From Candidatus Woesearchaeota archaeon (GTDB taxonomy: Archaea; Nanobdellota; Nanobdellia; Woesearchaeales; JAHWIC01), in assembly GCA_019322805.1 (NCBI GenBank), contig JAHWIC010000002.1, positions 2,938 to 66,937 on the forward strand: a stretch of DNA of 64,000 bases, given 5' to 3'. The position numbers were made by a program, and so were the translations under genes. The notes beneath the pieces were generated by a model, which saw nothing but the letters and a program-made list of their open reading frames with translations, did no database searches and was not told where the DNA came from. This document shows, one piece after another, positions 5,973-35,571 of this stretch. The stretch's first letter is position 1; every line of letters starts with the position of its first letter.

Positions 5973-6028
5973 AAAATAACAAAATCTTTATATATCATAT
6001 ATCCAAAGTTTCTTTTGGGTGGTTTTAC

Positions 6029-7120: not shown

Positions 7121-7122
7121 AA

Positions 7123-9379: not shown

Positions 9380-9391
9380 TTTTAATTTTCT

Positions 9392-10414
9392 TTAAAGAAA
9401 CTCTTTATGATTAACTGGTTTTGAAATATGTTCCAAGCCTCTATTGATATCATCATTTCTGCAAAAATATGGACAATCTTTGAAATCAATGTTTTCAAAA
9501 ATCTCCCTTATTCTCGATGAATCCCAGATTTCTTTTAATGCACTTTTGTTTAAATCCCCCAATAGATATTTCTCTTTTTGCCTGTGGCTTAAGCATGCAA
9601 ACACCCTAAAATCTGCAGTAACCACTGTGTTAAAAAACATTCCATAGCATTTACGATAGGGTCTTTTTTCTTTATCATCAAATCTTTTATATTTATGAAT
9701 TGATGATATTACCTTAAAATTTCCATCTTCATAAAGCTCTTTTGCTTTTTTAAATTCTTTATCTACCTTGGTAAAATCTCCTGTAAAAGGCCTGATCTGG
9801 GCAAAATCAACTCCACATTCTTTACTTAACTTATAGAAATTAAGTATATCCGATTTTGTTAGCTCATTAGTCAAAAAGCCTGTACCAAAAGCAACATCTC
9901 TATTAAGTTCTTTTCTTAGCTTTGAGAACATTTTCATATTTTCAACCACTTTGAGAAATGCTTCCTCTTCCACTCCATGGGTTTTCTTATACATCTCTTT
10001 TGTTCCCGCATCAAGGCTTATCCTAAAATATGTGCAGCAATCAATTATTGCTCTTGCTTTAGCTTCATCAAGCGCAAAACCATTTGAATTAAGTCCTATT
10101 CTCAAGCCTTTGCTCTTGATGTAATAGAGGATTTTTATGAAATCCGGGTGCAAAAGCGGTTCTCCGCCGCCACTGATTATGATTGATTTTGCTTCAAAGA
10201 CATCAGTAAGTTCATCTGCGAGTTTCTTTACCTGTCCAAATGTAAGGGAAATTTTTTTGTCTTTTGCACTGGTGCAATAGGGGCATTTATTGTCGCAAAG
10301 GTTTGTCAGATCAAGCTCAACTGAGATTAATGTTTTGTGTTTATTAAAAAAATAATCCTGCTTATCACTATACTTAAATATTTTCTCAAATGCATTGAAT
10401 TTATTTATTTTCAT
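9392..10414 (-). CDS. Radical SAM enzyme (possible SPASM/twitch C-terminal domain)
   Basis: CDNKCPYC CxxxCxxC cluster near the N-terminus. A Cys-rich C-terminus (CYGMF...ACLSH...CPYFC) is also present. Confidence 0.7.
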   Translation of the reverse strand: MKINKFNAFEKIFKYSDKQDYFFNKHKTLISVELDLTNLCDNKCPYCTSAKDKKISLTFGQVKKLADELTDVFEAKSIIISGGGEPLLHPDFIKILYYIKSKGLRIGLNSNGFALDEAKARAIIDCCTYFRISLDAGTKEMYKKTHGVEEEAFLKVVENMKMFSKLRKELNRDVAFGTGFLTNELTKSDILNFYKLSKECGVDFAQIRPFTGDFTKVDKEFKKAKELYEDGNFKVISSIHKYKRFDDKEKRPYRKCYGMFFNTVVTADFRVFACLSHRQKEKYLLGDLNKSALKEIWDSSRIREIFENIDFKDCPYFCRNDDINRGLEHISKPVNHKEFL

Positions 10415-10422
10415 TTTTACAG

Positions 10423-11679
10423 CTATTGGCCTATTACTTTAAGTTTAGGAATGGCTATTATGTATTTACCGCCATTTTCTTTATATTCTTTTGTCTTTTC
10501 AATTATTTCTCCAGCGAAATTCCATGCCAAGATCAATAGGTAATCTGGTTTTTCCTTATCAATCCATTCGCAAGGAACTATTGGGATTCTTGTCCCAGGA
10601 TATAATTTTCCCTGTTTATCTTTTGTATCATCAACTATAAAATTTATATCTTCTTTATCCAGCCCACAATAATTAACAAACACATTACCTTTTGCTGCTG
10701 CACCATATCCAGCAACTTTTTTGCCCCCTGCCTTTATTTTAGTCAATTTCTTAATAAACCTTTCTTTGACAGATTTGGCTTTCTCTTCTAATTTTTTATA
10801 AGGTTTTATTGTATAGAGTTTTTCTTTCAGTTCAATCTCCAAAAATTTATCTATAATTTTTTGATTGGTTTTTATTCTTGTATTAGAATCTTTAATTGCA
10901 GTAATTCTTATGGTGCCGCCATGCATATCAAGCCCTGATAAATTGCATATCTTCATTTTATGCCTAAAAAAAAGTTTTATTAGAGGTTTAACTAAAAAAT
11001 ATGATAAATGCTCATGGTACATCGTATCAAATTCCTTATTTCTTATAAGCTCTCGCATATAAGGAACTTCTATGACAAAGATGCCATTATCTGATAAAAC
11101 TTCATATACAGCAGACACAAAGCTGTGTATATCATCTACATGTGCTAGAACATTAGTCGCTGTAATGACGTCTACTTTGCCTAATTCTTTTAACACCTCT
11201 TTGGCAGCAGTCATATTCCAAAAAGAATTTATAGTTTTAATTCCTTGAGCATTTGCTATTTTAGATAAATTCTTAGCAGGTTCAACTCCTATCACATCAT
11301 AACCCTGTGCTCTAAATTCTTTTAATAGGCATCCATCATTGCTTGCTATATCAAGACATTTTAGATTATTTTTATTCTTAAACAGGCTTTTTATATCTTT
11401 GGCCATCTGTGAAAAATGTTTTTGTAGGGTCTTTGATACAGATGAGTGATAGATATAATCTGAAAAAAGATGAGTTGGATTAACAACAACATTCAATTGT
11501 GAATTTGAACAATCATTACAGAACATAACTGCTAAAGGCATTTTATCTGCTTCTTTTTCTCCTGGAGCAACAAAAGAATTAACAAGCGGTATATTACCCA
11601 AATCAAAATACTTTATAAGATTCCTTGATCCGCATATTCTACATGTATCTCTGGATTTATATTTTGGTTTATTTTCCAT
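10423..11679 (-). CDS. Zn-ribbon plus class I SAM-dependent methyltransferase with C-methyltransferase C-terminal domain (TylCIII-like NDP-hexose C-methyltransferase family)
   Basis: N-terminal CRICGS...LGNIPLVNSF...CNDCSNSQL zinc-binding domain. A Methyltransf-like core follows (VIGVEPAKNLSKIANAQGIK). Confidence 0.55.
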   Translation of the reverse strand: MENKPKYKSRDTCRICGSRNLIKYFDLGNIPLVNSFVAPGEKEADKMPLAVMFCNDCSNSQLNVVVNPTHLFSDYIYHSSVSKTLQKHFSQMAKDIKSLFKNKNNLKCLDIASNDGCLLKEFRAQGYDVIGVEPAKNLSKIANAQGIKTINSFWNMTAAKEVLKELGKVDVITATNVLAHVDDIHSFVSAVYEVLSDNGIFVIEVPYMRELIRNKEFDTMYHEHLSYFLVKPLIKLFFRHKMKICNLSGLDMHGGTIRITAIKDSNTRIKTNQKIIDKFLEIELKEKLYTIKPYKKLEEKAKSVKERFIKKLTKIKAGGKKVAGYGAAAKGNVFVNYCGLDKEDINFIVDDTKDKQGKLYPGTRIPIVPCEWIDKEKPDYLLILAWNFAGEIIEKTKEYKENGGKYIIAIPKLKVIGQ

Positions 11680-11689
11680 TTGAATTAAC

Positions 11690-12751
11690 CTAGTTAAGTG
11701 CGTATTGCCGAATCGTTCTATTTAGCCATATCAATTCATCAAAAAAATCAGTATATTTTTTAGCTATTTTGCTTATATCAAAGTTCTTAAGAACATATCT
11801 CCTACCAGCTTTACCTATTTTTTCCCGCAACTTTGGGTTTTCTATTAATTTTTTTAAATAATTATACCAATCTTCATCTGTATAAGCAAAATATCCTGTT
11901 TTGCCATGCTTGATTACTAATTTATCAGCTGCTGATGGAGTGCAAACAACAGGCAACCCAGCTGCCCTATAGGTATTTACCTTAGCTGATGGTTTATTTC
12001 TTTGCTGAAATTCATCGTCAAGGGGTTTGATAGTTACAGCTATATCTGAGCTTGCAAGCATTTTCTCCCAATCAGAAAGTTTCCATTCCACATACTTTAT
12101 AATGCCTTCATCCTTAGATGGGGTATTGGTATGATAAATCATATTGATTTTGTGCTTAGTATTTTTAGATATCTTTTTAATGATCAGATTTAATTTATTC
12201 ATAAATTTCATATTTACAGCAAAACCGTCCCAAAGAATATTAATTGGCCCTTCTTTTCTGTAATCCTCTTTATGTTGATGGTTAATGATTGGAACTTCTA
12301 TTAGTCTAAAATTAGAATTATATTGTTGGATATCCTTTCCTTGAAGAGGATTCACTATTATTATCCCGTCCATTAATTTTATGAATGTAATCTCTTTATC
12401 TGGATTATCTTGAATATCGTAAATTAAGATTGTATTATTTTCTTTAAGTTGTTTAATTATTTTTTCACTTATATTGCAAAATTCTACCATAACAACAATA
12501 TCAAATTTAGATAAGTCATCACCATCAAAAAAGATATCACATACATATTTTTTGCTGCGTTTATTAATACCATTTACTATAGGATCTATTCTCCATTTTC
12601 TGACATACATATTATTTTCTGCACTTAAAACTGGTCCAAAACCAACCCTTGTTTTATTTGAAAAGACATTTCTTAATTTAAGTTCTAAAAGCCAGCTTAG
12701 TCTAACCAACGAAAATTTAGGGTGAATTTTGTATAGCAATTGACGCAACAT
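11690..12751 (-). CDS. Glycosyltransferase (GT1/GT4-like C-terminal domain)
   Basis: C-terminal YRAAGLPVVCTPSAADKLVIKHGKTGYF...NPKLREKIGKAGRRYVLKNFD matches the GT-B 'glycos_transf_1' domain. Confidence 0.55.
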   Translation of the reverse strand: MLRQLLYKIHPKFSLVRLSWLLELKLRNVFSNKTRVGFGPVLSAENNMYVRKWRIDPIVNGINKRSKKYVCDIFFDGDDLSKFDIVVMVEFCNISEKIIKQLKENNTILIYDIQDNPDKEITFIKLMDGIIIVNPLQGKDIQQYNSNFRLIEVPIINHQHKEDYRKEGPINILWDGFAVNMKFMNKLNLIIKKISKNTKHKINMIYHTNTPSKDEGIIKYVEWKLSDWEKMLASSDIAVTIKPLDDEFQQRNKPSAKVNTYRAAGLPVVCTPSAADKLVIKHGKTGYFAYTDEDWYNYLKKLIENPKLREKIGKAGRRYVLKNFDISKIAKKYTDFFDELIWLNRTIRQYALN

Positions 12752-12861: not shown

Positions 12862-13728
12862 TTAAGAAATACATAACGACGCAGCACCTAAAATACCTGC
12901 GTCTTCACCTAATTTGCTTCTAATAACTTTAACATTCTTGACTAATGCTCTCTTTTTAATTGTAGTATTCATTTCTTTACTAAAGAACTTCCACGCTTTT
13001 GCTATATTTCCGCCAATAACGATTGCATCTGGGTCAAAGATATTAGCAAAGTTTGCAACAGCAACACCAAGATAAAAGCCAGTATCCTGCCAAAGCTTGA
13101 GTGCTTTCTTGTTTCTTTGCTCTGCTAGCTCAAAAAGCTCTCTTGGATTCTTAATGTATAACCCTTTTACTCGATTTAATATTCCCCGTATAGAAACATA
13201 ATTCTCAACACAGCCGTTATTGCCGCACTTTGACTTTGGGCCATTAAAATTAATAGTTGTATGGCCTAGTTCAGCTGCGCTGCCTCTTCCATGATAGAGT
13301 TTTCCGTCGATAAGGATGCCAGAGCCAACACCTGTGCCAAGAGTTAAACCAATAACATTTTCTTTGTTTTTAGCAGCTCCATATTTGGTTTCAGCAAGAG
13401 TGAAACAGTTTGCGTCATTATCAACAAAAACAGGCTTTTTGAATTCTTTTTCTATTAATTTTTTGATATTCACATTCTTAAGAGGAAGATTCGGAGAATA
13501 TTTTACAATTCCATTCTTTGCATCAATCATGCCGGGGACTCCTAAGCCAATGCCAGCGATATTTTTGCTTGGAAAGCTCTCAATAATATCAACAACCTTC
13601 CTTAGAACTGCTTTTTGACCTTTTTTTGGCTCAGTCTTTGTTTTTATCTTTGATATTATCTTTCCATTACTGACTACAGCAGCTCTGATGTTTGTTCCCC
13701 CTACATCAACACCAATTATATGTTTCAT
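12862..13728 (-). CDS. ROK-family sugar kinase (glucokinase-like)
   Basis: MKHIIGVDVGGTNIRAAVV N-terminus with ROK zinc motif region CGNNGCVE. Confidence 0.8.
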   Translation of the reverse strand: MKHIIGVDVGGTNIRAAVVSNGKIISKIKTKTEPKKGQKAVLRKVVDIIESFPSKNIAGIGLGVPGMIDAKNGIVKYSPNLPLKNVNIKKLIEKEFKKPVFVDNDANCFTLAETKYGAAKNKENVIGLTLGTGVGSGILIDGKLYHGRGSAAELGHTTINFNGPKSKCGNNGCVENYVSIRGILNRVKGLYIKNPRELFELAEQRNKKALKLWQDTGFYLGVAVANFANIFDPDAIVIGGNIAKAWKFFSKEMNTTIKKRALVKNVKVIRSKLGEDAGILGAASLCIS

Positions 13729-13733: not shown

Positions 13734-14867
13734 TTAGCGTTTCTCTACGAACTTCATAAATTTAACCCACTGTTTCTGGAACTTGAAATATTTAGGCACG
13801 TTTTTCTTCGCAAAAGTGTTTGCTTCAGTTAAGAAGAGCCTGGCATTGTCAAGACTTTGGTGAAATTCCTCTTTATCTCCTTTTTTTAAGCATTCCTTTG
13901 CATAATTTAGGCTGGTGGATATAGCCTTAAACTCTAAATCATCCTTAAGGAAGAACTTAGGATAGTCATCAAGGGATTCCAGTTTAAAATTATAGTATTT
14001 CATCTTTTCTCTCTGATAGATAAACCTGAATGCATCCCTTCTTATCTTAAGCCAGTAAGGAACATACTCTTTAGGAGGCAAATGCCTTACTACCATTTTA
14101 TTATCAAACATAAACTTATATCCAAAATGTTTTGCATTGAGCAATAGGTCCATATCTTCTCCTCTAGATATAAATGGGTCAAAAGGAACATTCTTATAAA
14201 GCCCTTTGTTAATTACCATATTGCCGCCTAAGGCCATACTAATCTCATGAAACCTTTTTTTAGACTCAATGTTGTTGAACAGCTTTCTCATGCGCCCTCT
14301 TTTCTGCCAATAGTCTTTCCACCTTGAGGGGTAATCTGGGGGCATGTAGGAACCATCCTTATCAATATAATAACCAGTCTTTGCAACAAGCGGCTTTCTG
14401 CCAAACTTTTTTCCAATGCCGTCTACAGCCAATTTAAAATAATCTTTCTCTTCTATAACCTCATCATCATCAAGGTGAATTAAGTTGTCTGCCCCCCACA
14501 TAGCGCCAATGATAAAACCCAGGTTCCTTATGCTTCCATAGTCCTCCAGGTTAATCTCACTCCTGAATAAAGGGGGCATCCTGCTGTCTCTTAACAAGGA
14601 TTTAACCTTTTTGTAGAATATGGTGTTAAAGAGATTGATATTCAATTCTGGGAATTTTTTTATGATCTCCCTGTTCTTTTTTATGACCTTTTTATAAATA
14701 GGTGTGGGGAATACGACAATATCCTCTCTTATTTTCAGTTTTCTTATACTTTCTAATAATCTTCCAAGAGTAGATTCCTTGTCTATCGGCGTCGGATGGT
14801 CAAAAATCTCACCTGTTCTTTTTGCTGGTAATGTCCAGTAGGTCGGTATAATGATCAGGTTTTTCAT
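13734..14867 (-). CDS. Divergent GT-A-fold glycosyltransferase-like protein (paralog A of 20167-21417)
   Basis: IIIPTYW beta-strand start with HLDDDEV DxD-like motif ~130 aa downstream. It is clearly paralogous to 20167..21417 (IPTYW..DHPTP..LDDDEV..GGNMV..RGE(D/N)MD). Confidence 0.45.
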   Translation of the reverse strand: MKNLIIIPTYWTLPAKRTGEIFDHPTPIDKESTLGRLLESIRKLKIREDIVVFPTPIYKKVIKKNREIIKKFPELNINLFNTIFYKKVKSLLRDSRMPPLFRSEINLEDYGSIRNLGFIIGAMWGADNLIHLDDDEVIEEKDYFKLAVDGIGKKFGRKPLVAKTGYYIDKDGSYMPPDYPSRWKDYWQKRGRMRKLFNNIESKKRFHEISMALGGNMVINKGLYKNVPFDPFISRGEDMDLLLNAKHFGYKFMFDNKMVVRHLPPKEYVPYWLKIRRDAFRFIYQREKMKYYNFKLESLDDYPKFFLKDDLEFKAISTSLNYAKECLKKGDKEEFHQSLDNARLFLTEANTFAKKNVPKYFKFQKQWVKFMKFVEKR

Positions 14868-14935
14868 TTTATACTACCCTAGAAGTTCTCGTATTTAAAC
14901 TTTTTTGATATAATAAGAATTAGCAGAACAAAGAT

Positions 14936-16381
14936 TTAATAAAATCTTTTATTCTCTATTGCTATTTTTAAAGCAGTGATTTGTGCGGGTTCTTCTGAGA
15001 TGACTATATCTTCAGGTGTGATTGCTGGCTCAAAGAGTCTAATCTGATTTTCAAGCCTAACTCTCACTATCTCATTTAAGATAACACTTCCTGTCAGACC
15101 AACGATAAATCTCTTATTATGCAAGCCAATATCCGTTGCTATGCGGCTTATATATGCTGCCATAGTCTTAGCTCCATCCAAGATTATTTTAAGAGCTGCT
15201 TTGTCGCCTTCTCTTGCTGCTATAAGAACATATTCTCCTAATTCAGGAATATCATTAACAGCCATGCCATGTGCTTGTGCAAGCACTACATTATGAGAAA
15301 TATTAGGCCCGATCCTAAATCCTACTTCAAAGAAATGGTTAATATCTATAAGTATCTCTTCAAATGTTCTTCCTCCTTCCTTGTAAAGTCTGAATAGCTT
15401 GCCTTTATCAAAAGCTTTCTTAGTGATTCTTGCTAATATTGACTTTGGATTTGTCTTTATAGCTCTTGCACCATGGTATGCGAGAAATCTGCCAGATAAG
15501 TGAACATTCTCAATTGTATTCAGATTCTTAGAAGCTTCGTATGTAAAGCACACTGCTTCTTTTTTAGTAAGAGGATTATGGCCGTAGGCAATATGCCCTG
15601 TTCCACCAATTAATATTACTCCGGGTCTTCCTTTTGTTGCAGCATACCAAGAAACAACATGGTCTGGCAAGAAAATCGCGTCTTTTACATGTTTTGGCAT
15701 GAATCTATAAGTATATTCTGTCATTAGTTCTTCGACTCTCCTATGAATCTCTTTACTTCTTATGACAATGCCAGCACCTATCCTCTCGAATTTTGCAGTC
15801 TTAAAGTTTATTCCTGCCTTCTCGCATGCTTGTTTGAGAGCTACTACAATGCTATCAAATGATCTTATAGCACCTACCCTGCCTGGGTCGCAAGGGCCTC
15901 CTCTTCCTATTCCAAGCACTTTTCCACCTGCTCTGCTTATTATTGCTACGGTTTTTGTGCCGCCACCATCAATTCCTGCATAGATACCTTCTCCTCTTGC
16001 AACTTTCTTTTCGTATTTTTTGAGGATCTTGCCAATATTTGCTTCTAGAATAATTATGTCTTTTAGAATAGCCTCTACTAATTCTGGTTGGGCACCCTTA
16101 TTTCTCTTAATAACAGCTAAAGCTTCTGTGCATCTCTTAGATATTGCTTGTAAGTCTTTAACTAGTTGTTCCTCTTGTTTGTTTATATCCATGCTCTGCC
16201 TGATATAATTATAACCCATTATTTTCCTACCCAGAGTTCTAAATAGTCTAATTGCACGATTGTAATCAAAAGAATGTTTAATCTCTTCTTGAGCTTTTTT
16301 TGCTTCTTCTATACAAAAATAACAAAATCTAACAGCACTATCAATATCCCTTGTCCTAAACTCAAATGGAGTTACATCCAT
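14936..16381 (-). CDS. BadF/BadG/BcrA/BcrD-type ATPase (N-acetylglucosamine kinase-like ASKHA fold) with N-terminal extension
   Basis: GIDGGGTKTVAIISRAGGKVLGIGRGGPCDP phosphate-1 motif plus C-terminal VGLTGSV. Confidence 0.65.
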   Translation of the reverse strand: MDVTPFEFRTRDIDSAVRFCYFCIEEAKKAQEEIKHSFDYNRAIRLFRTLGRKIMGYNYIRQSMDINKQEEQLVKDLQAISKRCTEALAVIKRNKGAQPELVEAILKDIIILEANIGKILKKYEKKVARGEGIYAGIDGGGTKTVAIISRAGGKVLGIGRGGPCDPGRVGAIRSFDSIVVALKQACEKAGINFKTAKFERIGAGIVIRSKEIHRRVEELMTEYTYRFMPKHVKDAIFLPDHVVSWYAATKGRPGVILIGGTGHIAYGHNPLTKKEAVCFTYEASKNLNTIENVHLSGRFLAYHGARAIKTNPKSILARITKKAFDKGKLFRLYKEGGRTFEEILIDINHFFEVGFRIGPNISHNVVLAQAHGMAVNDIPELGEYVLIAAREGDKAALKIILDGAKTMAAYISRIATDIGLHNKRFIVGLTGSVILNEIVRVRLENQIRLFEPAITPEDIVISEEPAQITALKIAIENKRFY

Positions 16382-16435
16382 ATTATCACCTTCTTTATCC
16401 TTTAACAGATTAGTATTTATTTCTTTCTTGTTTAT

Positions 16436-17923
16436 TCAAAGCTTTTCTGCAAAGCCTTTTGCTTCTTTTCTCCTTTTTAGCATCTCAGCAGCTAATGGTA
16501 AGTCTTCTGGTGCATCGTATCTAACGAGCCTAAATACATTAAATTCGTACATTGGTTTTCTTATATAGCGGGACATGAATTTAAATTCCCTCATCATTCT
16601 GCGCCTTTTTAAGAAGTTTAATGTTTCTTGTTCAAACATCTGCTTTAGGGCTATTTTCATAGCAACCGTTTGTTCAAGCAGTTCAATGAATTGTCCTCTT
16701 CTATCCGCTCTTTTGAACCTAGACCAGGTCCAGTCTTTTTCAGTCCAGCCTCTATTAACAGTCCTTATATCATGCATCATGCCTCTAATTTGTTCTTTAA
16801 CAGGTATATCTGTTCTCACTATAAAATCTCTTCCAGCAGGATCATCCATTGGATACATATGGATTGTTTCTGTATCTACAAATACAAGCCTTTTTCCATT
16901 CCAGCAAAAGTTAGCAGGCTTGAAATCCAGCATCCAATGCGTATTATGGATAATTGCCCTGTATGCATTATGTAACATCTGTCTATATAATGCCCGAATA
17001 AAACGTCTATTGCTGCTTTCTCTAATTAGTAAAGCCGCATTTTTTCCGATATGTTCCTGGTTCAAAACAGCTTGGTAATAGCCGGTTGGTCTTGCACCAG
17101 AAGGAGTCTTCTCCCACTGCTCAATTACATAGAGATCATTGTGGTCTGGAACACTCACTCCTGCTTCTTTTAGAAAAGCATAAAATCTCTTATTATTCTC
17201 TAGCCTTTTCTTAGCTTGTTCATAGCTCCATTTCCTACCCATTGTAAGCATTCCATACTTCTTAACAACTCTTATCCTTCCATCAATCCATGTCCAGGAG
17301 AATACTGTGCTTGCTCTACCTTTGCCTACTTTCTCTATCTTAACCCTTTCTTTTAGCGGCATCACTTGATTATAAATCTCTACTATGAGTTCTCTTTCTC
17401 CTTTAAAACCACTTAATCCATTATCAAAAAGGAGTTCTCCTTCTTGTCTTACGAGCCCCAGTAAAGGCTGTACTTCCTCTCTTTTGAATGCTGATTCAAA
17501 GGATTTATGCTCTTTAAACCATACTATCTCTTTAGCAACCACTGCAGCTAAAGCTCTTCTTACGCTAAATAATTCATTTATGTGTCCTTTTATTGACTCA
17601 GCTAAAGCTCTTTCTCCAACATCCTTCCTCTCAATATCACTTAACTCAGCAATCATCTCTCTATCTTTCCTGGAGTCTCTCTCATCAACCAAAAATTCAA
17701 ATTTATCAACTGATGTGAATATGCCTTTCATACGTTCAAAGATAGCTTCTGCTTTAGAAAGGTTCCTTCTGCTGCCAATCCTGCCAACAAAATCTCTCAA
17801 GAACTTTAACTTCCTTTGGTAAAAAGCAATAAACTCTTTTAGGTCCCTAAGCTCAGTTCCTACTTGCTTACTAATTCTTTCTATATCCTTTATCTGCCTA
17901 TCAGCCAATAAACTAGCAAACAT
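16436..17923 (-). CDS. Protein-kinase-like (PKL) fold phosphotransferase, uncharacterised
   Basis: HWMLDFKPANF resembles the catalytic loop (D.K..N) and VFVDTE is a DFG-like motif. No clear family assignment. Confidence 0.4.
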   Translation of the reverse strand: MFASLLADRQIKDIERISKQVGTELRDLKEFIAFYQRKLKFLRDFVGRIGSRRNLSKAEAIFERMKGIFTSVDKFEFLVDERDSRKDREMIAELSDIERKDVGERALAESIKGHINELFSVRRALAAVVAKEIVWFKEHKSFESAFKREEVQPLLGLVRQEGELLFDNGLSGFKGERELIVEIYNQVMPLKERVKIEKVGKGRASTVFSWTWIDGRIRVVKKYGMLTMGRKWSYEQAKKRLENNKRFYAFLKEAGVSVPDHNDLYVIEQWEKTPSGARPTGYYQAVLNQEHIGKNAALLIRESSNRRFIRALYRQMLHNAYRAIIHNTHWMLDFKPANFCWNGKRLVFVDTETIHMYPMDDPAGRDFIVRTDIPVKEQIRGMMHDIRTVNRGWTEKDWTWSRFKRADRRGQFIELLEQTVAMKIALKQMFEQETLNFLKRRRMMREFKFMSRYIRKPMYEFNVFRLVRYDAPEDLPLAAEMLKRRKEAKGFAEKL

Positions 17924-18035
17924 CTTAATATCATCCTGGGTATAATTATTATTTAAACCTTTCTAACAAATTTCTTCACTAATATCAAACAAAAAGCAAA
18001 ATTTATATATCAATTAACCGAGAGAAGACTATAAG

Positions 18036-20150
18036 ATGAAAAAGAGGGAACTCAAGGACTTAAACGGACAGTGGCTGTACTGCAAGACTAACTCGAGAAG
18101 AAAGTCTGACTGGAAGCCAATTAAGGTTCCTTCTAACTGGTATCTGCAGGGCTTAGACCACCATGGAAGGCTGTACTATAAAAGATATTTCTTAATGGAT
18201 AAGCTGAAGAAGGATAAAGCAGCATACATAAGGTTTCATGGTATTGATTATATTGCTGATATCTGGCTTAATGATGAGTATATCGGCCATCATGAGGGCT
18301 ATTTCCAGAGATTTGGATATAATATAACCCAATCTTTGAGGAGGAAGAATGAGCTTGTCGTAAGAGTAAACTCTCCAAAAGAATCTCCAAATGAATGGCC
18401 TGATAAGAAAAAGATAATCAAAGGCATATTTAGCCTGCATGACACAAGACCTGGCGGATGGGATCCAAAGCACGGGCAGGATAAAAATACAGGCGGAATC
18501 TGGAATAAAGTAGAGATAATTATTACAAGCAATATAGCAAGGATAAGGAGAGCGTATCTGTCAACAGTAAGTGCAAGCAAAAAAAGAGCAAACATAAATT
18601 GCGAAGTAAGGTTCTTCTCAAAAAATGAAGTAGAGTTTCAATTAAAGACTGTCTTTAAGCCGTTGAATTTCAAAGGGCGTGACATCAATTTTCCCCTGCA
18701 AACCATCAAGCAAAAAAGGGGATTCCATGTAACCTCTTTTAATCTTGAACTTAAGAATCCAAAACTTTGGTGGACTTGGGACCAGGGGTTTCCTTACATG
18801 TATAAGATTGAATTCCATGTTATCCATGAGGGAAGGGTAATTGATGTCTTAGAGAGAAAGTTTGGCATAAGAACATTCCAGGTAGACAAGCAGGAGCAAT
18901 GGTGGCTTAACAATAAGAGGGTTTTTCCAAGAGGAGTAAATTTCATACCAGAGCAATGGCTTTCCCAATATGAGTATGACCAGATAGAAAGGGACATCGC
19001 TTTGTTAAAGAAAGCAAATGTAAATGCTATAAGGATCCATGGACATATAAACAGGAGGGGGCTTTATGAAGCATGTGATAAAGAAGGAATCCTGATATAC
19101 CAGGACTTTCCGTTACAATGGGGGTACAGCAATACCCATAGCTTCATAAAAAGGGCCAGCAAGCAGGCAAAAGAGATGGTTCATCATCTGTATAATCACC
19201 CATCAATAGTCGTATGGTGCTGCCATAATGAGCCGTATCATACAACATCAAAGCTGGACAAGTCGGTCCATAGAGCTGTTGCACGAATGGACCATACAAG
19301 GCATGTTGTAGCAGGCTCTTTACTAACAGAGCATGCGTACCCTGGCTGGTATTATGGGCACTACAAGGAATTCTCAGGCATACCTGCCGGCCCATTAGTA
19401 ACTGAATTTGGTGCACAGGCACTGCCTAACGTGGAATCATTAAGAAAATTCATACCCAAGGAGGATTTATGGCCTCCAAACTGGAATCACTGGTCCTACC
19501 ATAACTTCAGATTCGAGCAGACATTTGAGGTTGCGAAGATAAAAAAGGGAAGAAGCCTTGCACAGTTTGTAAGAAACAGCCAGGATTATCAGGAAGAGCT
19601 CCTTAAATATGCAATAGAGACTATGCGAAGAGAAAAAGGGCGAAGAGTTACCGGCTTGTTTCAATTCATGTTCGTTGATTGCTGGCCGTCTATTTCCTGG
19701 TCTGTTGTTGATTATTACAGGCAGCCAAAAAAAGCATTCTATGCGCTACAGGCATCTTATGAGCCAATCCTAGTATCAATAAGGATAAAAAGGAGGCCAT
19801 TAGCTACATTCACATACAGGAATGATGTTGGCTGGACATATGTCTTATGGGACCCAAGGCAGGTTATCTGGATAACAAATGACACTTACAACAAATACAA
19901 GAATGCAAAGCTTGTCCTAAAGGTTGAAGATGAGAGCGGAAAAGGATACATTAGAAAAGTAATCAGCACAAACATACCAAGATATTCTTCTGCGCCAGTA
20001 TTAACACCTATAAGATTCAAACCAGTATTAAAGATAAAAGGAATTTTAGAGCCAGGAAGGTACATATTAAGGATGGGTATCTGGTACAGAAGAAAGAAGA
20101 TATCTAAAAACTATGAATATTTCAGAATAACAAAGAGGCAGGAGATATAA
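18036..20150 (+). CDS. Glycoside hydrolase family 2 (beta-mannosidase/beta-galactosidase-like)
   Basis: GH2 sugar-binding N-domain (WYLQGLDHHGRLYYKRYF) and TIM-barrel region NAIRIHGHINRRGLYEACDKEGILIYQDFPLQWGY. Confidence 0.75.
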   Translation: MKKRELKDLNGQWLYCKTNSRRKSDWKPIKVPSNWYLQGLDHHGRLYYKRYFLMDKLKKDKAAYIRFHGIDYIADIWLNDEYIGHHEGYFQRFGYNITQSLRRKNELVVRVNSPKESPNEWPDKKKIIKGIFSLHDTRPGGWDPKHGQDKNTGGIWNKVEIIITSNIARIRRAYLSTVSASKKRANINCEVRFFSKNEVEFQLKTVFKPLNFKGRDINFPLQTIKQKRGFHVTSFNLELKNPKLWWTWDQGFPYMYKIEFHVIHEGRVIDVLERKFGIRTFQVDKQEQWWLNNKRVFPRGVNFIPEQWLSQYEYDQIERDIALLKKANVNAIRIHGHINRRGLYEACDKEGILIYQDFPLQWGYSNTHSFIKRASKQAKEMVHHLYNHPSIVVWCCHNEPYHTTSKLDKSVHRAVARMDHTRHVVAGSLLTEHAYPGWYYGHYKEFSGIPAGPLVTEFGAQALPNVESLRKFIPKEDLWPPNWNHWSYHNFRFEQTFEVAKIKKGRSLAQFVRNSQDYQEELLKYAIETMRREKGRRVTGLFQFMFVDCWPSISWSVVDYYRQPKKAFYALQASYEPILVSIRIKRRPLATFTYRNDVGWTYVLWDPRQVIWITNDTYNKYKNAKLVLKVEDESGKGYIRKVISTNIPRYSSAPVLTPIRFKPVLKIKGILEPGRYILRMGIWYRRKKISKNYEYFRITKRQEI

Positions 20151-20166
20151 TGAGGAAATATAAAAA

Positions 20167-21417
20167 ATGAAAGAACAGATAATAACCATACCAACATACT
20201 GGACGAGGAGGGATGGTGTAAAAAAAGTAGGCGACACTTATTTTGATCATCCTACACCTTTGAATGGAGAGCAGACACTTACAAGAATGCTAGACAGCCT
20301 TAAAGAGGCATGGGGAAATTTTAAGGTCGTTGTTCTAACTGCAACTGTGGATTATAGTGACCAAAAGCTTTACGAGCAGGTTGAAAAAAAAGTAAATTCC
20401 CTCATTAAACCTTACAAGAAGCATTTCCCAATAATGCAGTTTGTAAAGTCTGATGTGAAGTTCTTGAAGGAAAGGATGAAGAAATACGGCATGGAAGACA
20501 TGATAACACAAATCAATCTTGCTTGTTATCCTACAATAAGGAACTGCCAGCTTATTGTTACAAACGGCCTGGGTGCTGATGTAATGCTCGGCCTGGATGA
20601 TGATGAGGTTGTTATGCGTGACCATGTTAAAAAGGCAACTGAGTTTATAGGAAAAGAGCATAAAGGTCAGAAAATTTACGGAATAGGCGGTTATTACAAA
20701 GATAAAAAAGGGGACCACATCATGAGGGATCTCAAAAAACCTCCAATTGATAATGTTTTCTATAGGAAGAGATGGATAAAGAATAATGGGTTCATAGTCA
20801 TAGATAAGAAAAAAGGCCGCGTGCATAAATCAAATTTCGTGTTTGGCGGAAATATGGTCATGCACAGGAAGATGTTCATGAATGTTGCTTATGACCTGGG
20901 GATAACAAGAGGAGAGAATATGGATTATCTTATTAATGCAAAGATGCACGGCTTAAACTTCTATTTTGACAAGGAACTTTATGTCATACACATGCCCCCT
21001 GAAAAATGGCATAAAAAGGTGAAAGCATTCCTAAAAACTGGTGCTTTTAGTATGGAAAGCTATTACAGGCTTGAGCAGGACATGCTGAGATTCATTTATG
21101 AACGCGAGAAAATCAGAGAGTGCAATGACCATCACCCAGAGCTAAAAAAAGTCAGTATTGACGGATTAAGACCTTACCCAGGAGATTTCTTTGAAGAAAA
21201 GGTTATCAATGATGCTGTATACGCATTGAAGTATATGTACCCAGAACAAACAAAAAAACTTAAGGTTAATGCTGAAGTGCAGGTTAACCGTGCCTTGGAA
21301 AGATCTAGAAAATTAGCACCCAATTATTTCCTGTTTAATGAAAAGTGGATAAAATTGATGAAGTTCATTGAGAAGGACAAAGCATTCAGGAAATACCTTA
21401 ACAGCAGATGGCTATAA
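20167..21417 (+). CDS. Divergent GT-A-fold glycosyltransferase-like protein (paralog B)
   Basis: ITIPTYW...DHPTP...LGLDDDEVV...FGGNMVMH...ITRGENMDYL. It is a paralog of 13734..14867. Confidence 0.45.
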   Translation: MKEQIITIPTYWTRRDGVKKVGDTYFDHPTPLNGEQTLTRMLDSLKEAWGNFKVVVLTATVDYSDQKLYEQVEKKVNSLIKPYKKHFPIMQFVKSDVKFLKERMKKYGMEDMITQINLACYPTIRNCQLIVTNGLGADVMLGLDDDEVVMRDHVKKATEFIGKEHKGQKIYGIGGYYKDKKGDHIMRDLKKPPIDNVFYRKRWIKNNGFIVIDKKKGRVHKSNFVFGGNMVMHRKMFMNVAYDLGITRGENMDYLINAKMHGLNFYFDKELYVIHMPPEKWHKKVKAFLKTGAFSMESYYRLEQDMLRFIYEREKIRECNDHHPELKKVSIDGLRPYPGDFFEEKVINDAVYALKYMYPEQTKKLKVNAEVQVNRALERSRKLAPNYFLFNEKWIKLMKFIEKDKAFRKYLNSRWL

Positions 21418-22206
21418 ATGCCTTAGAACAGCCTCTTTAAAACCTTCAGGACCTATCTTATTTATTCTTATTACATCCTTATGCCTGAAGCTGTAGTCTC
21501 CTTTATAATTCTTAACCTGATAGCCGTAATCAACATTCTTTAGCATTGGCAGATCATTCATCCCGTCACCAACACCAATTGCTGTAATCTTTCCAAATTT
21601 CTTTTTAAACAGTTTCTTCAGGGTATTGACTGCTTTTCCTTTATCGTTCTTTCCCATTATATAATGATATCTGCCGCCTTTGGTATAATTAAGCCTGTAT
21701 TTCTTAATCAATTTCTTTATTTTGTTTATATCCCCTTTAAACAACAAAAATGGTTCTGTGAATTCGCGTTTTTTTGCTAATCTTGCTTTCTGCAGTGATA
21801 TTCCAGCATTCTCTGACAGCTCTTTTAAAGTCAAATCTCCAAAGCCTTTTATCTCGTAACCTGTTTCTTTCTTTATTTTATTCAGGACTTTTCTTAATTC
21901 TCCATATTTGGTGCCAAATTGCAGTATCTCGCAGCCTCGCTTTATATAATCAGATTTAAGGCCCTTAAAATAACCTTTAGGAACAAAGATAGCAGCACCA
22001 TTCTCAGAAATAAAAGGGTGTTTTACTTTTATTTTCTTATAGTATATATCCATTTCATGGCTTACTCGACTGCTGCAAAACACCAAAGGAACCCTGTTTT
22101 TCACTATTTTACGTACAGCCGGCATTGCCTTACTGTAAGAATATGTGCTATGGTCAAGGAATGTTCCATCCATATCTGAAAAGATGACAAGACTAGCCAT
22201 AGTCAT
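21412..22206 (-). CDS. HAD-IIB phosphatase of the mannosyl-3-phosphoglycerate phosphatase (MPGP/YedP) family
   Basis: VIFSDMDGTFLD and VPLVFCSSR closely match the MPGP/YedP N-terminal signature (LVFSDLDGTLLD...VPVILCSSK). The C-terminal motif is GDGMNDLPM. Confidence 0.75.
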   Translation of the reverse strand: MTMASLVIFSDMDGTFLDHSTYSYSKAMPAVRKIVKNRVPLVFCSSRVSHEMDIYYKKIKVKHPFISENGAAIFVPKGYFKGLKSDYIKRGCEILQFGTKYGELRKVLNKIKKETGYEIKGFGDLTLKELSENAGISLQKARLAKKREFTEPFLLFKGDINKIKKLIKKYRLNYTKGGRYHYIMGKNDKGKAVNTLKKLFKKKFGKITAIGVGDGMNDLPMLKNVDYGYQVKNYKGDYSFRHKDVIRINKIGPEGFKEAVLRHL

Positions 22207-23512
22207 ATATCTCTTCCCTGAATTTCTTAAGTTGTTCGTTTTGGTATCGTAAGAACTCGTTAAAACCCTTTTTTGTAAACTTCTGAAATGGCGCTAACTT
22301 AAATGGCGTGGTCTCATATTCTATCTTTCTTTTTAGAAGGGATTCCTTTATCTCTTTATCTGAATATATTTCATTTAAAATTTTCTGGATTACCTTCTTC
22401 CTTTGACGCTCAAACCGCTCATTTGACATTGATTTAGTACCAAATAAGTAACCTTGAGTAGAATATCTTACCTGAAGCAGTTTTGCAAATTCCTGGATTC
22501 TTGGTTCTAAAAACCTAAAATCAGAATTTAAGAGATCCAAGAAATGTTTGAGGAATTCTTCCTTGGGCATATCAAAAGGGAGTGCATCTGACTCAATTGC
22601 CAAGTAAATGTAAGCCCTCAACATATTTTCATTTCTCCTCCTCATTGTCCTGGTAGGGGACTCAGCAACCTTGATATCATTATGGAATATCAGACCCCAC
22701 TCATTAGCGTTGTACAGATGCTCCATCTTATTGGGGGATCTGCACAAAAACCCTCCAATAAGGCCGTATCGCTGCAGGCGGTAGTTTAATTCAGTATGTT
22801 CACCATACCAGCCCCGAGTCTGATTGAATATGCCATTTCCAGGATGCTCTTTTTGCAGTTTTTCGAGAACCTTTGTAAAATGCAGCTGAAGATTACCATG
22901 GACATGGCCGTATAAAACATAAGCATTTTCATACTTTTCCCCTCTAAACGGCGTATACCTCCTTGGTTTCTCTACTTCTAAAAAATTAAATAATTTGGCA
23001 GCAAGTTCTTTCTTAGCCACGATTGTATCAACAAGAGCATTTGCTTCTGCCAGTCTTTTAGTCTTGGGCAGCCTAGAAACCTCAAATGTTGGATACCCAA
23101 CAAAAGCAGCATACTGCAGCCCCTGCTCCAAGAAGTCAAATAGCTCCTTTGGTTTATAGATAACAATATCATCATCAATCATATAGGTGAGCCTTGTTCC
23201 CTTAACTATATTCTGGATTGAACGCATAAGGCCTACATTTCTTCCGCTTGGTATCGTCTTTTCAGGATTGTAAACAACCTGGTACGGCAGGCTGCCCAAG
23301 TTATATTTCTCAAATACCTTTTTAACAAAGGACTCTGATTCCTGGTTTTTTTCAGTATTGCAGACAAGGATTATATTGTATTTTTTTCTGTCTAAATCGC
23401 CCAGGCATGTAAGAAATGTTCCAATCTGTCTTTCCCTGGAGGGTATGGTCAGGACTATGATATCCCTTTTAACTCCCTCTTTTATTTTCAGCTTAAGCAT
23501 ATAAACCCCCAA
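22193..23512 (-). CDS. Hypothetical protein with N-terminal GT-A-like region
   Basis: VLTIPSRERQ...MIDDDIV pattern. No confident family assignment. Confidence 0.3.
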   Translation of the reverse strand: MGVYMLKLKIKEGVKRDIIVLTIPSRERQIGTFLTCLGDLDRKKYNIILVCNTEKNQESESFVKKVFEKYNLGSLPYQVVYNPEKTIPSGRNVGLMRSIQNIVKGTRLTYMIDDDIVIYKPKELFDFLEQGLQYAAFVGYPTFEVSRLPKTKRLAEANALVDTIVAKKELAAKLFNFLEVEKPRRYTPFRGEKYENAYVLYGHVHGNLQLHFTKVLEKLQKEHPGNGIFNQTRGWYGEHTELNYRLQRYGLIGGFLCRSPNKMEHLYNANEWGLIFHNDIKVAESPTRTMRRRNENMLRAYIYLAIESDALPFDMPKEEFLKHFLDLLNSDFRFLEPRIQEFAKLLQVRYSTQGYLFGTKSMSNERFERQRKKVIQKILNEIYSDKEIKESLLKRKIEYETTPFKLAPFQKFTKKGFNEFLRYQNEQLKKFREEIYDYG

Positions 23513-23573: not shown

Positions 23574-24791
23574 CTATTTCTTGAGAATAACCCCAATATC
23601 TGCCACATTAGAGCCAGTTAATCCTGTAATAATAAGGTCCCTTGTTCTCTTAAAGAAGTGATAAGAATCATTATTTTCCAGATATTCTTTATAGTTCAGC
23701 CTCAGCTTTATAGCTCCGCCAAGAGATTTATTGTCAATTATTGCTCCAGCAGCGTCAGTTGGTCCGTCCCTGCCGTCAGAACCAATAGAAACAAGCGCAG
23801 CATTCTTTAATTTTGATATTTCCTCAATTGCTCCCAGGCAAAGCTCCTGGTTTCTGCCGCCTTTTCCTTTGCCTTTGACAGCAACTGTTGTTTCGCCAGC
23901 AAAAAGAAGTGCAATATTTTTTTTATTTTGGATTTTTTTAATGAATTTTTTCCCAATGATTTTAGCTTCTCCTTTCAGTTTATTAGTGATTATTACCGGC
24001 TTCAAACCTAATGACAGCGCCTTCTGTTTCATTGCTCCAAGCGCAACTTGATTGTTTAACAATAAGATATTATCAACATTCTTCAAACTCTTGTCGACTG
24101 TTGGTCCTGATGCAATTGTGCTTAAGTCATCTCCAACAACGTCTGAGAAAATCAATGAAATAATTCTTGCTTTTGTCAGCTTTGCTAATTTTCCCCCTTT
24201 AACAAGAGATAATTTTTTTCTTATTTTGTTTAATGCTCCGATGTCGATTCCTGATGCAAAGTGCTTGTTTATTATTTTCATGTATTGCTTGAATGGAATT
24301 TTAGGATAGCAAAGTAAAGCTGAACCCCCTCCTGAAACCAAGCAGATCACTAAATCATTTTTATTGAGATTTTTAATTAAATTGACAATTTTCTTGGCTC
24401 CATCAACATTCCTTTTGGAAGGCATTGGATGCGTTCCTTTTATCACCTTTATTTTTTTCAGTTTAATTTTCTTTGTTGATATTACAATTCCAGAGTCTAC
24501 TATATTCCCCAATATTTTCTCCAATTCTTTCGCCATTAAAGAAGAAGCTTTTCCAAAACCGATAACAATTATTTTCTTATATTTTTTTAAATCTATTTTT
24601 TTAATTGCCTTTTTATAATTTTTAATAAACAGAGCCTCTTTTCTTAATGTTATATTTTCACCCATTATCTTTTCAGTCTTGAGAGCATTAAGACCAGCAT
24701 CGATAATCTGCAATGCTTTAACCCGAGAATCAGAATTTTTTATCAACCGCCTGTAATTCTTAATAATCATTCTATTTTTTCTCTTCACCAA
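23574..24791 (-). CDS. Glycerate kinase (MOFRL/GckA-type, glycerate 2-kinase)
   Basis: VIGFGKASSLMAKELEKILG and LVSGGGSALLCYP motifs of the DUF4147+MOFRL glycerate kinase family. Confidence 0.75.
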   Translation of the reverse strand: MVKRKNRMIIKNYRRLIKNSDSRVKALQIIDAGLNALKTEKIMGENITLRKEALFIKNYKKAIKKIDLKKYKKIIVIGFGKASSLMAKELEKILGNIVDSGIVISTKKIKLKKIKVIKGTHPMPSKRNVDGAKKIVNLIKNLNKNDLVICLVSGGGSALLCYPKIPFKQYMKIINKHFASGIDIGALNKIRKKLSLVKGGKLAKLTKARIISLIFSDVVGDDLSTIASGPTVDKSLKNVDNILLLNNQVALGAMKQKALSLGLKPVIITNKLKGEAKIIGKKFIKKIQNKKNIALLFAGETTVAVKGKGKGGRNQELCLGAIEEISKLKNAALVSIGSDGRDGPTDAAGAIIDNKSLGGAIKLRLNYKEYLENNDSYHFFKRTRDLIITGLTGSNVADIGVILKK

Positions 24792-33649: not shown

Positions 33650-35288
<1,639 letters not shown>

Positions 35289-35327
35289 TTATTTCAATTT
35301 TTCATGATCAGAAACTGGGCCCGTAGC

Positions 35328-35450
35328 TCAGCAGTAGAGCGCCGCCCTTGCATTATACGTTTATAGTATATAGTATACGAGCGAGGCGGAGGCCTCGGGT
35401 TCGAATATTCCAGGACCATTGGACTGGATTTGAAAGTCCCGACGGGTCCA
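35328..35450 (+). tRNA. tRNA-Ala (anticodon TGC) in the 16S-23S spacer, with two introns (anticodon loop and T-loop)
   Basis: Acceptor GGGCCCG/CGGGTCC. Anticodon stem CCGCC/GGCGG with loop CTTGCA|tatacgtttatagtatatagtatacgagcg|A. T-arm TCGGG-TTCGAAT|attccaggaccattggactggatttgaaagt|CCCGA. Discriminator A. Confidence 0.75.
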
Positions 35451-35571
35451 TCTTTTACCTTAGGTGCAGAATAATCAGATAATGCTTATTTTTCATTTGA
35501 ACCAATCAATGATTGTATTATCTTGGTTGGAAGGTTGAAATCATTTTAATGAAACCATGCATAGTTGGTAG

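Follow-up and report, generated by a model that had tools for sequence, protein, structure and literature searches.

A family of GT-A-fold proteins in a conserved archaeal gene trio, with a possible role in sugar-glycerate metabolism

Introduction

Two described routes to glycosyl-glycerates provide the closest comparison for the genes considered here. In the MpgS-MPGP pathway the GT55 glycosyltransferase MpgS is paired with mannosyl-3-phosphoglycerate phosphatase (MPGP), and in mpgS-mpgP operons the phosphatase gene overlaps the upstream glycosyltransferase gene. In the GpgS-MggA-MggB pathway of Petrotoga mobilis and Rhodopirellula baltica one glycosyltransferase (GpgS, family GT81) acts on 3-phosphoglycerate, and a second glycosyltransferase and a phosphatase complete the set. 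R. baltica carries an mggS-mggB-sucrose phosphorylase (spase) cluster; MggA and MggS are GT4 enzymes, and MggS, whose acceptor is glucosylglycerate, forms with Ggs (glucosylglycerate synthase) a non-phosphorylating route (PMC3736172). Here we analyzed a 64,000-nucleotide stretch of DNA from a Candidatus Woesearchaeota archaeon (contig JAHWIC010000002.1, positions 2,938 to 66,937), which we call the window. It encodes two related proteins of the GT-A glycosyltransferase fold, GTA-1 and GTA-2, a third, orphan GT-A-like protein and an MPGP-family phosphatase of the HAD type, as well as sugar kinases and glycoside hydrolases (Table 1). We report that GTA-2, the orphan GT-A protein and the phosphatase are conserved as a trio in archaea, and that GTA-2 probably helps to make a sugar-glycerate compound with a protective or storage role.

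Three further systems are relevant. The MDIP synthase of Thermotoga maritima is GDP-mannose-dependent, β-1,2-mannosylates the small compatible solute di-myo-inositol phosphate and was described as "unrelated to known glycosyltransferases" (PMC3124967). Thermoanaerobacter sp. X-514 has a cluster of two GH130 genes, an ABC transporter, a mannose-1-phosphate guanylyltransferase, a GT4 and then Teth514_1785, annotated "hypothetical/glycosyltransferase"; the study of its β-1,2-mannoside phosphorylases found the substrate to have no identifiable endogenous source, and it lists phosphorylases in families GH13, 65, 94, 112 and 130 and in GT4 and GT35 (PMC4264767). Finally, genes for glucosylglycerate phosphorylase (GGaP) are typically accompanied by those for glycerate kinase, GpgS or GpgP (PMC7178133).

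An earlier note on this DNA, made from the letters and their open reading frames (ORFs), had proposed that GTA-1 and GTA-2 bracket a module for a glycosyl-glycerate cycle and are themselves its synthases. All of the ORFs that it named are present where it placed them.

Results

The conserved archaeal trio

We found that GTA-2 forms a conserved three-gene unit with the orphan GT-A protein and the MPGP-family phosphatase. The trio is present in six archaeal lineages, namely the window and five others (L005, L090, L007/L089, L087 and L086; locus numbers are our own), whose GTA-2 proteins are 86, 74, 70, 60 and 50% identical to that of the window. The three proteins diverge in parallel, those of L086 being 50% (GTA-2), 58% (orphan) and 48% (phosphatase) identical to their window counterparts. 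In every trio locus the orphan and phosphatase genes are co-directional and overlap, by 14 nt in the window, and the orphan gene always adjoins the phosphatase gene.

In L086 all three genes lie in a single operon, in the order GTA-2, orphan, phosphatase, the first two 5 nt apart and the last two overlapping by 4 nt. Upstream of them is a divergent sugar-1-phosphate nucleotidylyltransferase gene, for whose product the best, non-decisive match is a mannose-1-phosphate guanylyltransferase. Beyond it lies a block of enolase, cofactor-independent phosphoglycerate mutase (iPGM), DUF1015, class V aminotransferase and 2-Hacid_dh genes, which is the functional counterpart of the window block at 4123..8076 but has the other type of phosphoglycerate mutase (the window has the cofactor-dependent dPGM). 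The L090 operon runs on the minus strand and consists of a nucleotidylyltransferase, the orphan, the phosphatase, a 490-aa protein, a GH35-like β-glycosidase and a GT4. In L089 the trio stands alone amid housekeeping genes.

Two records with GTA-2 orthologs carry taxonomic labels that look doubtful. CP070655.1 (L003/L006), a 1.14-Mb "Candidatus Omnitrophota bacterium" chromosome, encodes a GTA-2 that is 87% identical to ours, together with a GH2. CAYXMT010000016.1 (L007), an "uncultured Methanosarcinales" contig of a metagenome-assembled genome (MAG), encodes one that is 70% identical, together with the phosphatase and the orphan.

The phosphatase is, by its sequence matches, an MPGP-family member and not a proven mannosyl-3-phosphoglycerate phosphatase proper. 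It scored 209.3 bits with the MPGP-family model TIGR01486, above the cutoff of 164.75, but fell below the cutoff of the MPGP equivalog TIGR02461 (205.9 bits against 244.35), as did its L086 ortholog (229.6 bits). The best PDB relatives are MPGP of Thermus (3ztw, E 1.4e-29), MPGP of Pyrococcus (1wzc, 1.9e-29) and YedP of Escherichia coli (1xvi, 3.1e-26); Cof-type phosphatases are the next class, at about 1e-7. The N-terminal motif DMDGT is present. The earlier note had called the protein MPGP/YedP-type, which these matches bear out, and it groups with neither the Cof-type nor the sucrose-phosphate phosphatases.

The orphan protein, which the earlier note had rightly taken for a further GT-A-like neighbor, has 11 homologs, each at least 54% identical. 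A HMMER profile of it, run against 1.84 billion representative sequences, recovered its own cluster and four weak matches, three of them Pfam GT2. Judged from these searches, it is truly lineage-restricted. Protein and profile searches against PDB sequences gave nothing significant. The AlphaFold2 model is poor (predicted local distance difference test, pLDDT, 62), and its N-terminal half matches GT-A enzymes in Foldseek. Since the database orthologs are 435 aa long, the gene probably starts at the ATG at 23500 and not at the called TTG.

GTA-1 and GTA-2 belong to one large family

GTA-1 and GTA-2 align over their full length with 32% identity and 52% positives (BLASTP, E 2e-55), so the paralogy proposed from shared motifs is confirmed. 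These motifs (IPTYW, DHPTP, DDDE, GGNM and RGE[D/N]xD) are invariant or near-invariant columns in our two family alignments, of 42 and 72 members, and R125, N126, D145, D146, G227, G228, D243, G249, E250, D253 and H275 are invariant in 72 of 72 sequences. A DxD metal/nucleoside diphosphate (NDP)-binding motif is present as DDD(E) at residues 144-147 of GTA-2.

Neither protein reached the threshold of any curated Pfam or NCBIfam model, and the sole signals were sub-threshold GT2 models: PF13632 for GTA-1 (18.9 bits, gathering threshold 27) and PF00535 for GTA-2 (19.8 bits, 23.3). Across the 42 members, PF13632, PF13641 and PF00535 were matched by 25, 20 and 14 at E<=0.01 (best E 6.9e-8), and nothing else was. 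The earlier statement that the pair match no nameable glycosyltransferase family is correct for curated matches and has to be qualified for these weak GT2 matches. From sequence, the description that fits the two best is that of remote GT2-like proteins, divergent and unclassified, outside every curated family.

The AlphaFold2 model of GTA-2, built from 42 sequences, is confident (pLDDT 91.7, predicted TM-score 0.92). Foldseek found 112 PDB matches at E<=0.001, which identifies the GT-A fold proposed for the paralogs; no unrelated fold was indicated. Among the top matches are TarP (E 8e-9), RmlT and K4CP, GT2-type enzymes matched at E 8e-9 to 1e-6, and MtdL, a GDP-sugar mutase. The TM-scores are all 0.35-0.42, so no solved structure is close to GTA-2, and single-protein and profile searches against PDB sequences returned nothing significant.

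In our reading of the alignment, the family appears to retain the GT2 motif series as PTY(W) (for PxYN), RN, DDD(E), GGN, GED(I/M)D and a late His, and to add an FDHPTP loop, which is invariant, and a helical domain at the C-terminus. Codon 251 of GTA-2 (window 20917..20919) gives GEN (RGENMD), whereas 68 of the 72 sequences, GTA-1 included, have GED (RGED(I/M)D). In the 72-sequence alignment Asn251 is shared only by the GTA-2 lineage (window, L005, L006 and L007). By our own reading of the GT2 TED/ED motif, residue 251 presumably corresponds to its catalytic base. Asn251 hints at altered or lost transferase chemistry in just the conserved copy.

GTA-1 and GTA-2 are members of one large, uncharacterized family of soluble ~400-aa GT-A-fold proteins. 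Two queries returned at least 565 and at least 1,402 homologs, the latter putting the family at 1,400 clusters or more, and it occurs in at least 493 species-representative genomes, mostly of Chloroflexota, Spirochaetota, Thermotogota, Halanaerobiales, Atribacterota, Aminicenantes and Coriobacteriia, with a few archaea. The names carried by the listed homologs are just "hypothetical" or "GT2 family". Judged from sequence, no membrane segment, signal sequence or hydrophobic N-terminus is present in GTA-1 or GTA-2. N-terminal extensions of some members were dismissed as ORF-calling artifacts in GC-rich DNA. An Anaerolineae member (L064, 9992..11794) has a ~190-aa C-terminal extension (FFEGL...GEMLGE...SATV) that by eye resembles a cyclic-nucleotide-binding domain and suggests allosteric regulation of that enzyme.

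Two deep clades and the history of GTA-1

A neighbor-joining tree of 72 family members splits into two deep clades, with GTA-1 in clade I and GTA-2 in clade II. Clade I also contains members from Aminicenantes, WOR-3, Coriobacteriia and Actinomycetota; GTA-2 groups in clade II with Halanaerobiales, Atribacterota and most of the bacterial members. The two window proteins are anciently diverged paralogs and not the product of a local duplication. Closest to GTA-1 (42.6% identity) is a member of a tandem gene pair from an Aenigmatarchaeota MAG (L074). This pair of clade I genes (4979..7260) overlaps by 4 nt and lies directly after mre11-rad50. A pattern scan of JGI metagenomes with GTA-1 returned the window's own sequence alone and no close relative.

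The earlier note had the paralogs bracket one module, with two sugar kinases, a kinase-like protein and a GH2 hydrolase between them. Pfam confirms the BadF-type ATPase and the GH2 inside this interval; the protein kinase-like label of the third protein comes from motifs, with no database match. Only the BadF-like gene of the two sugar kinases is bracketed, since the ROK gene lies just outside, beside GTA-1. The closest relative, L005 (86% identical to GTA-2), has the gene order ROK, GH2, GTA-2, phosphatase, orphan, RimK. GTA-1, the BadF-like gene, the 495-aa kinase-like gene, the glycerate kinase gene (at that position) and the genes of 8093..12751 are missing from it. The paralogs are therefore not the ends of one bracketed unit. 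GTA-1 would be a separate, lineage-specific addition in an operon with kinases and sugar-modifying genes.

Gene neighborhoods of the family in bacteria

The ORFs of 81 loci were clustered and the clusters annotated, and neighbors were counted on the same strand within five genes. In the 54 clade II loci we found an ABC sugar transporter in 19, a GH13_18-like protein in 15, a GH130 in 14, an MggS-like GT4 in 10, a GH38 in 4 and a LacI regulator in 4. At least one marker enzyme is present in 29 of these loci, or in 36 when the transporter is counted. Clade I members have a stp1-like GT4 as neighbor in four loci and none of the clade II markers. The neighboring GH13 has sucrose and glucosylglycerol phosphorylases as best PDB relatives, the GH38 is an α-mannosidase, the GH130 resembles β-1,2-mannobiose phosphorylase, and the GT4 matches NF041101 (mannosylglucosylglycerate synthase) with 451 bits.

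A recurrent bacterial operon has the order LacI, substrate-binding protein, permease, permease, [GH130], MggS-like GT4, GH13 and family member. After the family member, L004 has an MggS-like/GH63 fusion, a pair of GT4s, a bona fide GpgS (387.8 bits with NF010496, whose cutoff is 262) and a His_Phos_1 protein. A protein from the same cluster as this GpgS is encoded in L039. With a GpgS already at L004 and a same-cluster protein at L039, the role of the family member would be distinct from first-step synthesis. The neighborhood check named in the earlier note ties the family to glycosyl-glycerate genes on both sides: the archaeal trio is kept in six lineages, once as a single operon, and bacterial relatives lie near genes for MggS-like GT4, GH13_18-like, GH38, GH130 and GpgS proteins.

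Accessory genes of the module

The GH2 is β-mannosidase-like by its closest sequence relatives, with β-mannosidase 5n6u as best PDB match (1.7e-48, next match 2.4e-33), and the L003 ortholog carries a Mannosidase_ig domain. Among the loci compared it was found only in the window, L005 and L006.

Searches of Pfam, NCBIfam and the PDB with the 495-aa protein (16436..17923), singly or in a two-sequence profile, found no match. Its motifs are kinase-like (GKGRAS..RVVKKY, LDFKPANF and FVDTE). The 490-aa protein of L090, encoded directly after the phosphatase gene, is a full-length homolog with 50% identity that keeps GxGRA, RV(V/I)KK, DFKPxN and VDT; its position makes the kinase-like protein a recurrent accessory of the module. 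It is the sole known homolog, and a pattern scan of metagenomes for the kinase-like protein returned nothing. The kinase-like protein and the BadF-like ATPase both have long, helix-rich N-terminal extensions (~200 and ~130 aa), between which no similarity was detected. The BadF-like protein matches NagK_SO3507 at 72.5 bits, far below the cutoff, and no homolog of it was found in the relatives' loci compared. The ROK kinase matches the ROK glucokinase subfamily (189.8 bits) and is conserved beside the GH2 in L005.

Discussion

Like the GpgS-MggA-MggB set, the trio combines a candidate glycosyltransferase for 3-phosphoglycerate, a second glycosyltransferase and a phosphatase. Unlike that set, in which MggA and MggS are GT4 proteins of the GT-B fold and GpgS is GT81, the trio has two GT-A transferases. 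Alignment with hhalign of the GTA-2-family and orphan profiles to a bona fide GpgS gave a probability <1%, with no detectable GT81 similarity, and the phosphatase is MPGP-type, unlike MggB of R. baltica. An identity of GTA-1 or GTA-2 with MggA or MggS was rejected on the difference in fold. The MpgS-MPGP pathway shares with the trio an MPGP-family phosphatase and the overlap of its gene with that of a glycosyltransferase upstream; unlike in that pathway, the three GT-A proteins have no GT55 (Osmo_MPGsynth) signal, the phosphatase falls short of the equivalog model and a second glycosyltransferase is always attached. Only the phosphatase belongs to a known family of these routes, and both transferases fall outside GT81, GT55 and GT78 by sequence and outside GT4 by fold. 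The bacterial relatives of GTA-2, beside MggS-like GT4, GpgS and sucrose-phosphorylase-like GH13 proteins, resemble the R. baltica mggS-mggB-spase cluster (PMC3736172).

In fold and motif series GTA-1 and GTA-2 are like the inverting GT2-type enzymes TarP, TarS, RmlT and K4CP, which are among the best structural matches. They differ from these in their low TM-scores and sub-gathering Pfam matches, in the FDHPTP loop and C-terminal helical domain, and in being soluble and encoded outside wall-polymer loci. MDIP synthase may be a functional analog of GTA-2, a comparison made by description; it is reportedly limited to Thermotogales and Aquificales (PMC3124967), whereas the GTA family spans many phyla. 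The gene set of the X-514 cluster matches several bacterial family loci by content (for example L029, with GH130, GH130, GT4 and family member); its authors propose uptake of external β-mannan and not endogenous synthesis (PMC4264767).

We consider the link of the GTA-2 family to glycosyl-glycerate metabolism reasonably supported, because the archaeal trio and the bacterial neighborhoods are two independent lines of evidence for it. How the trio would work is more tentative, and the mechanism that we favor has, in our estimate, somewhat less than an even chance of being right as a whole. In outline the trio would follow the GpgS-MggA-MggB route to mannosylglucosylglycerate, though with transferases not homologous to those of that route. 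The orphan GT-A protein, translationally coupled to the phosphatase, would glycosylate 3-phosphoglycerate. GTA-2 would then transfer a second sugar onto the phosphorylated intermediate or its dephosphorylated product, from an NDP-sugar and with inversion, giving a β-linked sugar, most likely mannose. The MPGP-type phosphatase would remove the phosphate, leaving a solute or reserve of the diglycosyl-glycerate type. For its breakdown, the β-mannosidase-like GH2 (and the GH130 elsewhere in the window) would strip the β-sugar, the ROK, BadF-like and kinase-like proteins would re-activate the freed sugars, and glycerate 2-kinase, phosphoglycerate mutase and enolase would feed glycerate back into glycolysis.

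Four observations lead us to place GTA-2 at the second step. The first is the GpgS in L004 and the same-cluster protein in L039, and the second is that the orphan is the gene translationally coupled to the phosphatase. Third, motifs and fold of GTA-2 are of the inverting GT2 type, whereas to our knowledge all known glycosyl-glycerates are α-linked products of retaining enzymes. Fourth, the degradative neighbors (GH2, the GH35-like protein of L090 and GH130) are β-specific. GH2 and GH130 act on β-glycosides, GH130 enzymes being β-mannoside phosphorylases, while the products of MpgS-type enzymes are α-mannosides. The breakdown of a mannosylglycerate-type product by GH2 and GH130, as the earlier note had it, would set β-enzymes on an α-product, a stereochemical mismatch, and the window GH130 is isolated from the module.

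Several points weigh against this mechanism. The L086 operon, with GTA-2 first, would favor GTA-2 as the first-step enzyme. Asn251 stands in the GTA-2 lineage at the presumed catalytic base (Asp in 68 of 72), which fits poorly with an ordinary inverting transferase. Resemblance in motif and fold, together with neighboring genes, is what suggests inversion and a mannose donor, and GT81 enzymes, which are retaining, likewise resemble GT2. The orphan protein has a poor model, as noted above. No marker neighbor is present in 25 of the 54 clade II loci, nor at any clade I locus. The LacI/ABC uptake operon of Anoxybacter fermentans has the family member as its sole enzyme, and several MAG loci place it straight after ABC permease genes; such a pattern would be commoner for a catabolic enzyme. 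The order of the two GT-A proteins in the proposed pathway should be read as a suggestion.

If the favored mechanism is correct, the trio would include a new transferase family and probably make a new sugar-glycerate solute, and genome-reduced, Woesearchaeota-like archaea would invest in a solute or reserve pathway of their own. The family has more than 1,000 proteins over many bacterial phyla and archaeal groups, with no curated model or known activity, and its neighborhoods point to glucosylglycerate, mannosylglucosylglycerate and β-mannoside metabolism. It could supply the endogenous substrate of bacterial β-1,2-mannoside phosphorylases, which was not identified in the X-514 study (PMC4264767).

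A reading closer to that of the earlier note, which we regard as unlikely, makes GTA-1 and GTA-2 new primary glycosyl-glycerate synthases, acting on an NDP-sugar and 3-phosphoglycerate or D-glycerate as analogs of MpgS, GpgS, MGS and Ggs, and gives the second step to the orphan. It draws on the gene order of L086 and on the phosphoglycerate dehydrogenase (PGDH)-like and aminotransferase genes that adjoin the module, and the bacterial pairing with MggS-like GT4 and GH13_18-like phosphorylases fits the Ggs plus MggS route (PMC3736172). However, neither protein gives a GT55, GT78 or GT81 signal in Pfam or NCBIfam, the family profile hits no structure of these families among PDB sequences at E<=10, and the 50 best structural matches include none of them; most of these matches are inverting GT2-type enzymes and not of the retaining type that makes the known α-linked products. 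The hhalign result with GpgS, the GpgS that L004 already has beside its family member and the same-cluster protein of L039 also speak against it. The name glucosylglycerate synthase occurs on 0 of the 240 homologs listed, including matches to a Thermotogae query; we dropped Ggs as an identity and kept it as a functional analogy. The trio and the bacterial neighbors strengthen the broader notion of a sugar-glycerate cycle, but the paralogs as MpgS/GpgS-like synthases are not supported.

We also considered a catabolic role, in which these GT-A-fold proteins would split a glycoside taken up from outside, either by phosphorolysis or by reverse transfer to NDP, and so save the bond energy, as GH130 and GH13_18 phosphorylases do. 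Such a role would suit the A. fermentans operon (LacI, substrate-binding protein, permease, permease and family member, with no other enzyme), the same-strand ABC sugar transporter at 19 of the 54 clade II loci, the frequent position of the family member at the operon end with phosphorylases and GH38, the co-transcription of GTA-2 with GH2 in the window and the loss of the GED-motif Asp in the GTA-2 lineage. On the other hand, the archaeal protein is tied to a phosphatase, a second glycosyltransferase and, in two lineages, a nucleotidylyltransferase, which is an anabolic set; the DDD NDP/metal motif is invariant; and we know of no GT-A-fold phosphorylase. We judge this role unlikely. Its boldest form, that the family is the first GT-A-fold glycoside phosphorylase or physiologically reverse-acting transferase, is a distant prospect, as is the milder variant of an endogenous synthase of the β-mannosides that GH130 degrades. 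In the former case the substrates may be imported or stored β-glycosides or glycosyl-glycerates, in anaerobes and DPANN archaea; the latter may be, by analogy, a prokaryotic counterpart of the Leishmania mannogen cycle.

To a similar degree we doubt that these are common GT2-type transferases that build glycans of the cell surface or of proteins, set beside solute genes by coincidence in a variable "sugar island". This reading is most apt for GTA-1, whose array has a GT4-like protein, an NDP-hexose-type C-methyltransferase, a radical SAM/SPASM protein and a DRL-like oxidoreductase, and whose clade I relatives have stp1-like GT4 neighbors; the region also varies among close relatives. Against it, membrane segments and signal sequences are absent from the proteins, as judged from sequence, the GTA-2 trio is kept at 50-86% identity though its flanks change completely, and the bacterial contexts are those of cytoplasmic sugar metabolism and not of polysaccharide export.

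Finally, it is very improbable that GTA-1 and GTA-2 are NDP-sugar pyranose/furanose mutases of the MtdL/UAM (GT75-like) type: MtdL has the highest TM-scores of the top Foldseek matches (0.40-0.42), rice UAM2 is listed too, and MtdL is the second-best match of the family profile among PDB sequences via the RN...DDD region, but this match is non-significant (E 0.83), all TM-scores are <0.5, the RN...DDD pattern is general to GT2, and a mutase would leave the linkage to a phosphatase, a second glycosyltransferase and glycosidases unexplained.

Other features of the window

The features discussed are collected in Table 1. The earlier note's glycerate kinase with a MOFRL domain, its GH130 phosphorylase and its block of enolase, phosphoglycerate mutase, aminotransferase and dehydrogenase genes are all present.

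Table 1. Genes of the module and related features in the window
Feature	Coordinates	Strand	Description
GTA-1	13734..14867	-	377 aa; clade I GT-A/GT2-like protein; within 8-gene minus-strand array
GTA-2	20167..21417	+	416 aa; soluble GT2-like (GT-A fold) putative glycosyltransferase, clade II
Orphan GT-A-like protein	22193..23512	-	GT-A Foldseek matches; candidate first-step glycosyl-3-phosphoglycerate-type synthase
MPGP-family HAD-IIB phosphatase	21412..22206	-	passes TIGR01486
GH2, β-mannosidase-like	18036..20150	+	four GH2 Pfam domains; 16 nt upstream of GTA-2, same strand
495-aa orphan with kinase-like motifs	16436..17923	-	label from motifs alone
BadF/BcrAD-family ASKHA ATPase, N-acetylglucosamine-kinase-like	14936..16381	-	PF01869, 68.7 bits
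ROK-family sugar kinase, without helix-turn-helix (HTH) domain	12862..13728	-	PF00480, 243 bits
Glycerate 2-kinase-type protein (DUF4147 + MOFRL)	23574..24791	-	PF13660, 206.5 bits; PF05161, 125.4 bits
Sugar-modification genes, co-directional with GTA-1	8093..12751	-	Pfam
3-phosphoglycerate node: enolase, dPGM-type His_Phos_1, class V aminotransferase, PGDH-like 2-hydroxyacid dehydrogenase	4123..8076	+	Pfam, NCBIfam
GH130 protein	51938..53515	-	525 aa; PF04041, 88.7 bits

The glycerate kinase carries the DUF4147 and MOFRL pair and scores below the cutoffs of the NCBIfam glycerate 2-kinase equivalogs (227 bits against 670). Its TTG start overlaps rimK by 20 nt and may lie too far upstream.

The genes at 8093..12751 encode a DRL-like oxidoreductase with a SAF domain, a radical SAM/SPASM protein, an NDP-hexose-type C-methyltransferase (Methyltransf_13/14) and a GT4-like protein, and they continue the GTA-1 operon. 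Their absence from the closest relative raises the possibility of a mobile cassette that serves a modified (C-methylated?) sugar. With ~180 aa ahead of its GH130 domain, the GH130 protein is longer than usual, and its neighbors (a transglutaminase-like protein, a PIN-KH ATPase and an HTH protein) are unrelated to the module.

A scan for bacterial promoters and terminators showed no excess over shuffled sequence; the models are bacterial and not applicable to an archaeon. The archaeal origin of the window is evident from its 16S-23S rRNA operon (33650..38591), which matches archaeal Rfam models, and its G+C content is ~37%. The 16S rRNA gene (33650..35286) is 1,637 nt long and is matched end to end by an archaeal model of 1,478 positions, so it carries ~160 nt of insertion(s). 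Such insertions occur in some rRNAs of DPANN archaea and of the candidate phyla radiation (CPR).

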